Assembly (NCBI GenBank): GCA_964486045.1
Contig: CAZALK010000011.1
Location: 112,526-176,525, forward strand
Direction: 5' to 3'
Source of the DNA: an uncultured archaeon
GTDB taxonomy: Archaea > Asgardarchaeota > Lokiarchaeia > Sigyniarchaeales > SOKP01
Length of the DNA stretch: 64,000 bases
Under the pieces are notes generated by a model. It was not told the origin of the DNA and made no database searches. It worked only from the letters and a program-made list of their open reading frames with translations. How positions within the stretch are numbered: the stretch's first letter is position 1; the number at the start of each line of letters is the position of its first letter. This document shows, in pieces, positions 35,532-38,778 of the stretch. A program made the translations under genes and the position numbers.

Positions 35532-35894
35532 TTATTTATCATTTTGTAAAGATTTATTATGAGCCCATTTCATTAAAGGTATCATAGCATCTCTAACTTC
35601 GATTCCATCCTGAGTTAGCGAGTATTCCACTTTTGGAGGTATTTCGGGAAAGAGCTCTCTCTTTATTAAGCCTGCTTCATTCAACTTTTTTAATCTATCT
35701 GAAAGGGCTTTTGGGCTTATACCTTTAATATCTTTTAAAAGTTCATTAAACCTTAACTTATCATAATTACTGATTGTGCCAATAATCACTAATGCCCATT
35801 TTTTACTAATGACATTAATAATTCCTTCTACCGGGCAAAAACAAAAGCCCTCTTCTCCCGTATTTTTACAACGAATCCCAGTAACCTTTTTAAT
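35532..35894 (-). CDS. HxlR-family winged-helix regulator with Cys-rich N-terminus
   Basis: ISPKALSDRLKKL...PPKVEYSLT; frame extends upstream of GTG 35789 through CKNTGEEGFCFCPVEGIINVISKKW to ATT 35894, 6 nt after GGTGA. Confidence 0.85.
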   Translation of the reverse strand: MKKVTGIRCKNTGEEGFCFCPVEGIINVISKKWALVIIGTISNYDKLRFNELLKDIKGISPKALSDRLKKLNEAGLIKRELFPEIPPKVEYSLTQDGIEVRDAMIPLMKWAHNKSLQNDK

Positions 35895-36000: not shown

Positions 36001-36150
36001 ATGCTCGAGGAATCTCATCTCATAAAGAAAGTCGAAATTCAACCAGAACAAAATGCTTGTTCTTGTGGTTGTACGGGTCAAGAAAATGAAAATTTTGAAG
36101 AAACTAAACAAAAACTAGTTAGTCAGTCCCAAAATGAATCAAAGAAATAA
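36001..36150 (+). CDS. 49-aa peptide with a CSCGC motif (putative metal-binding), not in ORF track
   Basis: MLEESHLIKKVEIQPEQNACSCGCTGQENENFEETKQKLVSQSQNESKK*, preceded by a GAAGGTGA SD-like site. Confidence 0.65.
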   Translation: MLEESHLIKKVEIQPEQNACSCGCTGQENENFEETKQKLVSQSQNESKK

Positions 36151-36161
36151 GTTGTAATTAT

Positions 36162-36428
36162 ATGTTAATTTTAAAACATGTCGAATATGAAATACCTGAT
36201 CTTAATCAATTGAATCTACTATTAGAACATATAAATCAAATATCTTCTAAAATTGAAGGGATTTCATTTACTGACATTTTTTTTTCTAAAAATGGGAAGG
36301 AATTTGTTCTTCTGTTAGAATCTGAAAGTGAAGAAGTTTATCTTAATTGGAGAAAAATATGTCCTCCTCCATCTGGTACTAGAGATTGGTATGACGTATA
36401 TTTGTCTAAAAAAGAAAGTTTCTCTTAA
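36162..36428 (+). CDS. Hypothetical 88-aa protein co-oriented with the CSCGC peptide
   Basis: ATG ORF 11 nt after the peptide stop. Confidence 0.65.
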   Translation: MLILKHVEYEIPDLNQLNLLLEHINQISSKIEGISFTDIFFSKNGKEFVLLLESESEEVYLNWRKICPPPSGTRDWYDVYLSKKESFS

Positions 36429-36592
36429 ACCTTGCAACCTTATTGGAAAGAACCTATACAAGAACTTGTCATAAAATCTGAAATCAACACTCTTCAACAT
36501 TTAGAAACCTAAGTCATATTGAAACTTAAGTTCACGAGCTATCTTATTAAATTAACTCCTAATTATATGAATTATTATAAAATTATAACTGG

Positions 36593-36610
36593 AAGTTATT
36601 TAAATAACTT
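36593..36610. promoter_or_regulatory. Perfect 18-bp palindrome AAGTTATTTAAATAACTT centred on a TTTAAA TATA-like box
   Basis: Ends 48 nt upstream of ATG 36659. Confidence 0.45.
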
Positions 36611-36658
36611 AATCCTAAGATTAATGTAAATCTGTTAAAGATTTTTTCGTTGATTATT

Positions 36659-36868
36659 ATGTTATATAATTGTACCGTACATTGCCCATTTTGTGGACAT
36701 TTAAATAAAGTTGAAATTCCGGAAAATAAATGACTTCTGAGCCTTGAATGTCAAGGTTGTAAGGATATCATTTCAGGGAAGGAAAATCCCCATGGTTGAA
36801 ATTGAGTATTATGCGCTTATGGTGACACTCCTTGAGTACAAATTCAAGCAAAAGAAAAAATCAAGTAA
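36659..36868 (+). CDS. GDCCVxC-family selenoprotein candidate with four in-frame TGA (Sec) codons
   Basis: MLYNCTVHCPFCGHLNKVEIPENK-U-LLSLECQGCKDIISGKENPHG-U-N-U-VLCAYGDTP-U-VQIQAKEKIK*; TGA at 36731, 36797, 36803 and 36833 fall at family Cys positions. Confidence 0.85.
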
Positions 36869-36873
36869 AAAAA

Positions 36874-36922
36874 AATCAATGATGCCAATGAATAAATGTT
36901 AGTCATTGGTTAAGACGAGATT
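36874..36922 (+). promoter_or_regulatory. Candidate eukaryote-like SECIS element in the 3' UTR
   Basis: AATC-A-ATGA, stem CCAATGA/TCATTGG, AAA in the apical loop 11 nt after ATGA, GA at 36914, closing GATT. Confidence 0.5.
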
Positions 36923-37064
36923 GCGCTCTCGAAAATTAAAAATAATATCTATAATCTCCTTTTTTTTATATATTATTATAATAAGATTGAAAAAAGTTTT
37001 GATTGTAGATCTAAATAGAATAATAAATTAATAACTAATTTCTTTATTTAGAAGATGAAACAAA

Positions 37065-38468
37065 ATGGAAAACTATGAATTAATTATAATAGGCGGCGGA
37101 GCAGCAGGATTTGCTGCTGCAATGAAAGCTAATGATTTAAAAATTAAAGCCCTAATGGTAAATAATGATGCGATAGGATTAGGTGGAACATGTGTTAATG
37201 TAGGCTGCGTTCCAACAAAATATTTGCTAAATATCGGAGATTTAATTAACAAATCGAGAAATCAACGATTTGAAGGTATCAAATCATCGATTTCTGTTAA
37301 TTTTCAAAAAGTCATCGAGGGAAAAAATAATCTTATCAAGCAATTGCAACAGGATAAATATGAAAATGTTTTGAAAAAATTACCAAACGTTGATCTTGTT
37401 GAAGGTAATGCCAAATTCGTTTCAAACTCAGAAATTCAAGTGGATAATCAAAAAACATTTAAAACAAATAAATTTATTGTTGCTACTGGCTCCTCATCTT
37501 TTATTCCACCAATAAAGGGTATTGAGCAAGTTGATTACACCACTAATATTGAAGCACTTCAATTAGAAAAGCTACCAGAGACTATGATTGTTTTAGGTGG
37601 GGGTGCATTAGGAGTTGAATTTGCTCAATTATTTTCTCGATTTGGGACAAAAGTTTATCTTTTTGAAATGCTAGATAGTATAGTACCAAATGAAGAACCT
37701 GAAATATCTCTTTATCTAAAAGAATATCTTCAAGATGAAGGAATCGAGATTTATACAAATGCTAAAATAATTGAAATCGAAAATGGAGATAGTGAGAAAG
37801 TAATAAAAGTACTTCATAATAACAATGAGTCAACATTTAAAGCAGAACACATTTTAATCGCAGCAGGAAGGAAGCCTAACACTAACAATCTAGGACTAGA
37901 AGAAATTGGAATAAATTTAGGAAAGAAGGGACAGATTATCGTTGATGAATTTATGAAGGCAAGAGAAAACATATGGGCTGCCGGGGATGTAATCGGTGAA
38001 CCAATGTTAGAAACTATTGCTGCTAGAGAAGGAATGATTGCTACGACGAATGCTTTATCAGATGAAAAAATTAAAATGGATTACAGAGTGGTTCCCCATG
38101 CAATTTTTACCAGTCCTCAAGTTGGGAGTGTTGGTTTAACTGATCTCCAAGCAAATCAAATGGGTTTTGATTGCAGATGTAATACAATCCCAATTGGGTT
38201 TGTAGCTAAATCAAAAATCATTAATGAAGATAAAGGAGTATTAAAAATCGTAATCAATAGAAAAACAGAAGAAATTTTAGGCATTCACATTTTATCTACT
38301 AATGCTGCTGATCTAATTCATGAAGGTGTTATGATTATTAAGAATCATATGACACTCGATGATGTAATTAGTACAATCCATGTTTTTCCTACATTATCAG
38401 AAGCTATAAAACTTACAGCCCAATCATTCAAACGAGATATTTCTGTTATTAGTTGTTGTATTGAATAA
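37065..38468 (+). CDS. merA: Mercuric reductase (no N-terminal NmerA domain)
   Basis: GGTCVNVGCVP redox centre, HVFPTLSE and C-terminal vicinal Cys pair SCCIE. Confidence 0.88.
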   Translation: MENYELIIIGGGAAGFAAAMKANDLKIKALMVNNDAIGLGGTCVNVGCVPTKYLLNIGDLINKSRNQRFEGIKSSISVNFQKVIEGKNNLIKQLQQDKYENVLKKLPNVDLVEGNAKFVSNSEIQVDNQKTFKTNKFIVATGSSSFIPPIKGIEQVDYTTNIEALQLEKLPETMIVLGGGALGVEFAQLFSRFGTKVYLFEMLDSIVPNEEPEISLYLKEYLQDEGIEIYTNAKIIEIENGDSEKVIKVLHNNNESTFKAEHILIAAGRKPNTNNLGLEEIGINLGKKGQIIVDEFMKARENIWAAGDVIGEPMLETIAAREGMIATTNALSDEKIKMDYRVVPHAIFTSPQVGSVGLTDLQANQMGFDCRCNTIPIGFVAKSKIINEDKGVLKIVINRKTEEILGIHILSTNAADLIHEGVMIIKNHMTLDDVISTIHVFPTLSEAIKLTAQSFKRDISVISCCIE

Positions 38469-38550
38469 CTTTATCTATTTTACATCAGATAAGATATAGA
38501 TAAAGTGTATAATGAGAATTTTACCAAATTTAAAATCAAGGTAGTTTAAA

Positions 38551-38778
38551 ATTAAACCAAGAAAAATAAAATTCACCGCGAAAAATAAGGCAATTCATTG
38601 TAAATCTTGCAAAGCGCGTATTGAGACAGTATTAAAAAATGAACCAGGTATAATAAGTATCAAAGCGGATTATAAAACTCAGAATGTAGATTTGCTTTTT
38701 GATGAGGAAATAATCACAATACAAGTTATAAAAACAATAATAGAAGATTTGGGATTTCCTATCAAAAAATTGGGTTAA
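38551..38778 (+). CDS. Stand-alone HMA-domain metallochaperone (CopZ/MerP-like), not in ORF track
   Basis: IKPRKIKFTAKNKAIHCKSCKARIETVLKNEPGIISIKADYKTQNVDLLFDEEIITIQVIKTIIEDLGFPIKKLG*; no ATG/GTG/TTG before the CxxC, apparent ATT start. Confidence 0.8.
   Translation: MKPRKIKFTAKNKAIHCKSCKARIETVLKNEPGIISIKADYKTQNVDLLFDEEIITIQVIKTIIEDLGFPIKKLG

Follow-up and report, generated by a model that had tools for sequence, protein, structure and literature searches.

The 119 prokaryotic selenoprotein families on record contain one selenocysteine (Sec) residue or, in a few cases, two or three (PMC13188914). NF041374, the NCBIfam model for the small GDCCVxC proteins, is entered in that work under the name "Hypothetical protein GOS_B" as a single-Sec family of bacteria; in our full-text literature search the accession was found only there, and the term "GDCCVxC" was found in no paper. 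For the Asgard archaea, seven selenoprotein families have been reported: SelD, FrhA, HdrA, FrhD/VhuD, a Prx-like protein, AhpF-N, and a DsbA-like protein (Huang et al. 2024, PMC11227280). FlpD/VhuD is an established Asgard selenoprotein family, and an AUGA_AA core is a known variant of the SECIS elements of these archaea (PMC11227280). The GDCCVxC family and the Asgard decoding system were thus known already. What is new at the locus described here is the presence of the family in archaea, with four to five Sec residues, a UxU motif, and a pairing with merA, the gene for mercury(II) reductase. In the literature searched, which included the dedicated Asgard surveys, the four-Sec form is unreported.

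The window analyzed here is a stretch of 64,000 nucleotides from an uncultured archaeon of the Lokiarchaeia (contig CAZALK010000011.1 of assembly GCA_964486045.1). On its plus strand, the coding sequence at 36659..36868 begins with an ATG at 36659, ends with a TAA stop at 36866-36868, and comprises 69 sense codons. TGA occurs in frame at 36731, 36797, 36803, and 36833, corresponding to residues 25, 47, 49, and 59; no TAA, TAG, or frameshift was found in 36659-36868 before the terminal TAA. The frame is missing from the standard ORF listing, as gene finders overlook a gene with four UGA "stop" codons inside it. It had been picked out in a preliminary description of this DNA, whose coordinates, TGA positions, and 69-residue ATG-to-TAA reading are exact and whose translation string is identical to the printed one. 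That description took the frame for a real multi-Sec protein and not a pseudogene. The family HMM, the placement of TGA at Cys columns, 27 homologues, a SECIS element, and the Sec machinery all agree with it, and judging from these comparisons we consider it very probable that this is a genuine four-Sec gene, decoded through a SECIS at 36874-36917. Insertion of Sec at the four UGAs is what we infer from gene structure, conservation, SECIS, machinery, family, and gene associations, each of which was observed directly and is set out below.

With Sec read as Cys, the predicted protein matches NF041374 from position 2 to position 57 of the 58-position model and, at 48 bits, exceeds the curated 40-bit cut-off for the whole protein, so that the membership of the GDCCVxC family proposed earlier is borne out; with the stops left unread, the score is 34.8 bits. 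No Pfam model matches the protein, and an exhaustive profile-free search returned 193 relatives. The TGA codons had also been said to occupy Cys sites. In an alignment against 78 Cys-form homologues, all four indeed fall on conserved Cys columns: the column of codon 25 (36731..36733), the "DAC" Cys, is Cys in 63 of 78; those of residues 47 and 49 in 66 and 76, respectively; and that of codon 59 (36833..36835), the "PCP" Cys, in 72. The earlier reading of the GUNU stretch as the Asp plus the second Cys of the motif did not hold. Residue 48 is an insertion between two Cys columns, a gap in 76/78 Cys forms, and the CC pair of GDCCVxC has therefore become a UxU motif (UGA-AAU-UGA at 36797..36805; Sec47, Asn48, Sec49). 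One Cys-form homologue, P0017, also shows CxC at the CC pair. The name-giving stretch accordingly reads H-G-U-N-U-V-L-C, in which the literal GDCCVxC string is absent, the D lost, and V-x-C kept.

Two sets of Cys/Sec positions can be told apart in the predicted product. Cys9, 12, 31, and 34 form a zinc-ribbon-like CPxCG...CxxC pattern, with knuckles (C9-P-F-C12-G and C31-Q-G-C34) whose columns are invariant or nearly so among the 78 Cys-form homologues. Of the five other conserved Cys positions, only that of Cys52 still holds Cys; the remaining four hold Sec (U25, U47, U49, and U59), and by sequence all five residues make up a second cluster. The C-terminal spacing is C/U-x-U-x2-C-x6-U-hydrophobic, as against CC-x2-C-x6-CP in the Cys forms. 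By alignment, then, the predicted four-Sec protein represents a branch of the GDCCVxC family that is both divergent and rich in Sec. Its AlphaFold2 model, computed from an 86-row alignment (pLDDT 95.9), has four short strands followed by two helices, a predicted fold that would be zinc-ribbon-like. Foldseek found no PDB match with E <0.4, a VIA-align comparison with 48,161 chains gave only generic zinc fingers and ribbons (best Z 3.8), and a PDB profile search gave only weak zinc-ribbon matches. Neither Pfam nor NCBIfam returned an HMA match that would indicate an HMA fold or a GMTCxxC motif.

Four stops in 69 codons, in a frame that standard gene calling leaves out, could also signify a pseudogene or a chance frame in which translation ends at the first UGA. 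We surveyed conservation with six-frame searches that read through stops, covering the 154 genomes of the window's own order. The four-Sec gene was found in 27 of these, all in families f1 and f2, and in every one of the 27 distinct homologues TGA stands at the same four codons (108/108); one genome, G047, has a fifth TGA that replaces the second Cys of the CxxC. No TAA, TAG, or frameshift occurs in the core of any of the 27, so that homologues disrupted in this way, which the preliminary description had named as refuting its reading, were not found among them. Among the homologues, identity to the window protein goes as low as about 32%, with saturation at synonymous sites (median dS ~1.3). 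A four-TGA frame could arise by chance in a genome of 31% GC, but chance is ruled out because TGA is kept at 108/108 codons at saturated dS. Moreover, downstream of the first TGA the median dN/dS is 0.28, with 99% of pairs below 1, and a conserved SECIS is present. Real decay looks different: a copy in genome G224 has acquired TAA and TAG stops, lost its N-terminal half, and changed Cys52 to Phe, retaining a SECIS relic of 34.8 bits. A pseudogene or chance frame is, in our judgment, hardly credible.

In a single-protein query, one carrier of the four-Sec gene came up by name: "Ca. Harpocratesius repetitus" FW102, a Lokiarchaeia metagenome-assembled genome. Seven more database proteins carry W at the four Sec sites, the presumed source being gene calls in which TGA was translated as Trp. 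In other Asgard families (f13, f16, and f18) the ordinary GDCC form occurs with Cys and without stops. Two f18 homologues (G145 and G146) that seemed to carry one TGA were considered as one-Sec forms and rejected, the TGA being the ordinary stop of a Cys form.

The element that would direct Sec insertion lies just 3' of the gene. The SECIS at 36874..36917 (+) is of the eukaryote-like type and sits in the 3' untranslated region, its AUGA (36879-36882) beginning 11 nt past the stop. Two 9-nt arms (36883-36891 and 36903-36911) enclose an A-rich 11-nt loop, AUAAAUGUUAG, at 36892-36902, and AA followed by GA occupies 36912-36915. On the 3' side the window thus has AA, the variant noted above, where most relatives have GA, and its own GA comes 2 nt further on. 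An AUGA...GA/AA hairpin is found at all 27 homologous loci (L030 has AAGA), 38-75 nt from the last Sec codon and, at one of the 27, further downstream. A permissive Rfam scan of 36400-37300 gave chance matches only and no SECIS family; in the absence of a matching Rfam model, the element was established from comparative data. In an alignment of 20 SECIS elements that left out the window genome, 91% of the cells in the 9-bp helix are paired, compared with 34-58% for slid-partner controls; at each of the nine pairs both partners vary, and the covariation score was reached by none of 500 shuffles.

From the hairpins of the other genomes, again without the window genome, we built a covariance model, R1. 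A search of the window genome with R1 recovered the window element at 51.7 bits plus six other sites. Matches lie just 3' of two FlpD/VhuD genes, each of which has two in-frame TGAs. In its SECIS, the second of two SelD genes shares the 9/11/9 layout of the window element, with a one-base difference in the loop. On 20 Cys-form homologue loci, R1 found nothing better than E 0.48.

The remaining R1 matches are observations in their own right. The best in the genome (52.2 bits; C16:46342-46385, minus strand) follows only the last 16 codons of a four-Sec paralogue (…ILICSHSDTPULKIQQ, then stop), and this locus, L079, is a 5'-truncated relic that kept its SECIS. At L083, a 164-codon frame (C25:38547-39041, plus strand) contains two adjacent in-frame TGAs (…HADUUADV…), has no Pfam match, and is followed after 4 nt by a SECIS-like element (C25:39045-39088; 39.9 bits); we regard it as a candidate for a new selenoprotein having two Sec residues side by side. 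Two shorter plus-strand frames with one internal TGA each and an R1 SECIS directly after them, L082 (C3:142679-142927; 82 codons; 42.0 bits) and L084 (C35:3559-3789; 76 codons; 31.7 bits), lack a convincing Pfam match and may be further unannotated small selenoproteins.

A second small hairpin, CGAGA-UUGCGC-UCUCG (36916..36931, +), directly follows the window SECIS and was recognized by eye, as was its conservation, with compensatory changes, at the homologous loci. All eight SECIS elements that we looked at in this genome are immediately followed by a short hairpin, whose loop is often of the GCAA or UGC type and which may belong to the functional element in this lineage. After both hairpins comes a run of eight T residues (T8; 36960..36967, +), with a similar run in homologous loci. 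It is possibly an archaeal transcript end; if so, the four-Sec gene is transcribed separately from merA. Among public sequencing runs, no RNA run is listed as containing the window stretch, and it is present in full length only in two marine-sediment DNA runs, from which it may derive. In two other genomes (G240 and G268; loci L035 and L036) the frame runs into the SECIS, with the UGA of its AUGA in frame 9 nt before the first TAA, so that termination may occur at the SECIS core itself.

The 5.18-Mb window genome (31% GC) also has the means to use such an element. The genes for tRNA-Sec, SepSecS (494 bits, above its cut-off), and an EFSec-like factor are close together on contig C15; the EFSec-like gene, ~4 kb from the tRNA-Sec gene, scores 231 bits, just under the bacterial SelB cut-off, and a PSTK-like gene scores 141 bits, below its equivalog cut-off. 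There are two SelD genes, each with a TGA Sec codon. The complete set of Sec machinery that the preliminary description expected was therefore found in part at full strength (tRNA-Sec, SepSecS, and SelD) and in part only below family cut-offs (the PSTK-like and EFSec-like genes). The SelD genes are in tandem (C1:756562-759906; L002 and L003), each with the usual Sec codon, and the second has, compared with the first, a 9-residue insertion with an extra in-frame TGA (…LIKKVVLFUGEIGG…). In our proposal, the four UGAs would be read as Sec by this archaeal/eukaryote-type machinery, and the one eukaryote-like SECIS 3' of the stop would direct all four insertions.

The public gene calls of relatives that print W at these sites could instead be taken to mean that read-through of the UGAs inserts Cys or Trp, or is only partial, and that the product is not a selenoprotein or not fully one. 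However, TGA closes 341 of 2027 long frames in this genome and so is an ordinary stop without genome-wide reassignment. A covarying SECIS in the class of the VhuD element belongs to the gene itself, and the four sites line up with Cys, the usual counterpart of Sec. In addition, the Sec form occurs only where SepSecS is present among the genomes sampled: SepSecS was above its cut-off in 5/5 Sec-form genomes compared with 0/5 Asgard Cys-form genomes. Read-through of this kind is very improbable, and decoding as Sec is the reading that we carry forward.

Downstream of the four-Sec gene in the window, on the same strand, is merA (37065..38471), encoding a 467-residue mercury(II) reductase that scores 534 bits against TIGR02053 (cut-off 454). 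Its redox pair is CVNVGC and its C terminus ends ...SCCIE. A match to the long-form model begins only at model position 98, confirming the earlier remark that this is a core-only enzyme without NmerA; its relatives are labelled Promethearchaeota. Next come a free HMA protein of the CopZ/MerP/NmerA-like type with a CxxC (38545..38778, +; PF00403, 47 bits) and a P1B-type heavy-metal ATPase with an N-terminal HMA domain (38806..41013, +; TIGR01525, 560 bits). The HMA protein could play the NmerA part for MerA. None of ATG, GTG, or TTG is available as a start within the open part of its frame (38545-38775); an in-frame ATG lies at 38512 with a TAG at 38542 in between, and ATG-TGA precedes this frame in G224. 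The protein may use an unusual start codon, or there may be some other cause. Upstream of the four-Sec gene, on the minus strand, is an HxlR-type winged-helix regulator (35532..35789), possibly a regulator of the locus, which adjoins the four-Sec gene in only one other genome (both copies in G219). Two ORFs in between, a CSCGC peptide (36001-36150) and an 88-residue frame (36162-36428), were considered as parts of the system and rejected, having no counterpart in homologous loci.

Among the 154 genomes of the order, true MerA (above the cut-off) is encoded in eight. An intact four-Sec gene lies 0.2-1.3 kb upstream of merA on the same strand in seven; the eighth, G224 (L099, C36), has the decayed copy upstream and keeps merA, the HMA gene, and the ATPase gene. 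Where merA occurs in the order, it is coupled to the four-Sec gene. Since the merA genomes belong to only four related genera, this 8-of-8 association rests on few independent events. In G240 (L100, C116), an intact four-Sec gene stands beside a merA cut off after ~190 residues; together, G224 and G240 show the two-gene module decaying in reciprocal ways. MerA above the cut-off is absent from about 20 of the 27 four-Sec carriers, in agreement with the order-wide survey; the best MerA scores in ten carriers that we checked directly were 272-306 bits, below 454. Elsewhere, the neighbors of the four-Sec gene have no relation to metals and include an F420 ligase, methyltransferases, endonuclease V, and a PAN ATPase.

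In bacteria, the surroundings of the family mostly concern mercury and heavy metals. By tblastn, GDCCVxC Cys forms are present on 352 plasmids, and among the matches listed they are often directly after merT/merP or beside HMA, cation-transporter, and ACR3 genes. One metagenomic copy follows merT, and in two proteins MerC is fused to a C-terminal GDCCVxC domain. The statement that the family is found near mer genes was therefore sound. The companion idea, that the selenoprotein is a mercury scavenger or a shuttle feeding MerA, is plausible in light of both the merA neighborhood and the bacterial mer contexts, and its scavenger part may hold; a MerA shuttle cannot be the general role, because most carriers have no MerA. 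The carriers without MerA, with their metal-unrelated neighbors, instead point to a role of the protein's own. We lean toward a cytoplasmic protein that would serve as a trap or hand-off point for Hg(II) or some other soft metal, bound at its selenolate-rich site. Direct hand-off to MerA seems less likely than such binding. Where merA is present, the four-Sec gene and the NmerA-less MerA would constitute a two-gene module. The more specific proposal, in which four selenolates and one thiolate form a selenium-based mercury trap that replaces NmerA as the partner of MerA, we advance only tentatively.

The main rival for the function accepts the four-Sec protein as real and makes it an Fe-S(Se) center or a selenenylsulfide/diselenide redox switch for which mercury is not a substrate, the adjacency of merA reflecting shared regulation or shared mobility. 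The spacing C/U-x-U-x2-C-x6-U-hydrophobic, or CC-x2-C-x6-CP in the Cys forms, could fit such a center and is reminiscent of the ferredoxin-type Cys motifs with a terminal CP. VhuD/FlpD, the other archaeal multi-Sec protein, is an Fe-S protein, and the many carriers that lack MerA and have metal-unrelated neighbors accord with this account as well. The family contexts, on the other hand, are mostly mercury or heavy-metal genes (merT, merP, MerC fusions, HMA, and ACR3), and merA in this order is always beside the four-Sec gene or its remnant. We regard a role in Fe-S or redox chemistry as unlikely and retain soft-metal binding as the working function. The explanation as a whole, namely a functional four-Sec gene served by one SECIS, a divergent branch of the GDCCVxC family, and a putative soft-metal role, is one that we hold with good confidence.

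How, then, does this locus compare with the systems already described? The NF041374 proteins share with it their length, the pattern of nine Cys/Sec positions (CPxCG...C...CxxC...C-C-x2-C...PC-P), and a link to mercury and metal genes. They differ in having no Sec or one, where the archaeal form has four (five in one genome); in the archaeal form, moreover, the CC pair is split to UxU and the GD is replaced (ENPHGUxU). The decoding signals are also unlike: the archaeal gene has a 3'-UTR eukaryote-like SECIS, the bacterial ones an in-frame SECIS. With the Asgard genes that use eSECIS-like elements, the four-Sec gene has in common the AUGA...GA/AA core, the A-rich loop, the location in the 3' UTR, and the decoding system, but its family is outside the seven reported, and its number of Sec residues is twice that of VhuD. 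Bacterial two-Sec proteins, too, are small and predicted to bind metal, with paired Cys ligands replaced by Sec; they belong to other families and folds and have two Sec residues rather than four. Four Sec residues from one SECIS exceed the 1 to 3 per protein listed for prokaryotes in PMC13188914, and a 69-residue protein with four or five would, if real, raise the prokaryotic ceiling of Sec per protein. There is a warning for annotation here as well, since such genes are absent from public annotations or mistranslated in them, with W at the Sec sites.

Compared with the HMA metallochaperones NmerA, MerP, and CopZ, the likeness is one of proposed role, a small cytoplasmic soft-metal module beside an NmerA-less MerA. 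Fold and motif are unrelated, the model predicting a zinc ribbon plus two helices, and there is no HMA match; the four-Sec protein may work like NmerA without being a member of the NmerA/HMA family. If the four-Sec protein is real, the locus would suggest a part for selenium chemistry in how archaea deal with mercury or soft metals. Were the protein a selenium-based trap in partnership with MerA, this would be the first Se-dependent archaeal mercury detoxification module, built on the most Sec-rich prokaryotic protein known.

The closest parallel in decoding is eukaryotic. Selenoprotein P is large and secreted and uses two SECIS elements; its Sec-rich part binds mercury in vivo. As in the gene described here, several UGA-Sec codons are served from the 3' UTR, and if our reading is correct, multiple UGAs lying close together can be decoded through the eukaryote-like SECIS of Asgard archaea, a point that bears on the origin of multi-Sec decoding such as that of selenoprotein P. 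The two proteins have no homology, and the archaeal arrangement is the more compact, with one hairpin and four UGAs 46-148 nt upstream of it.
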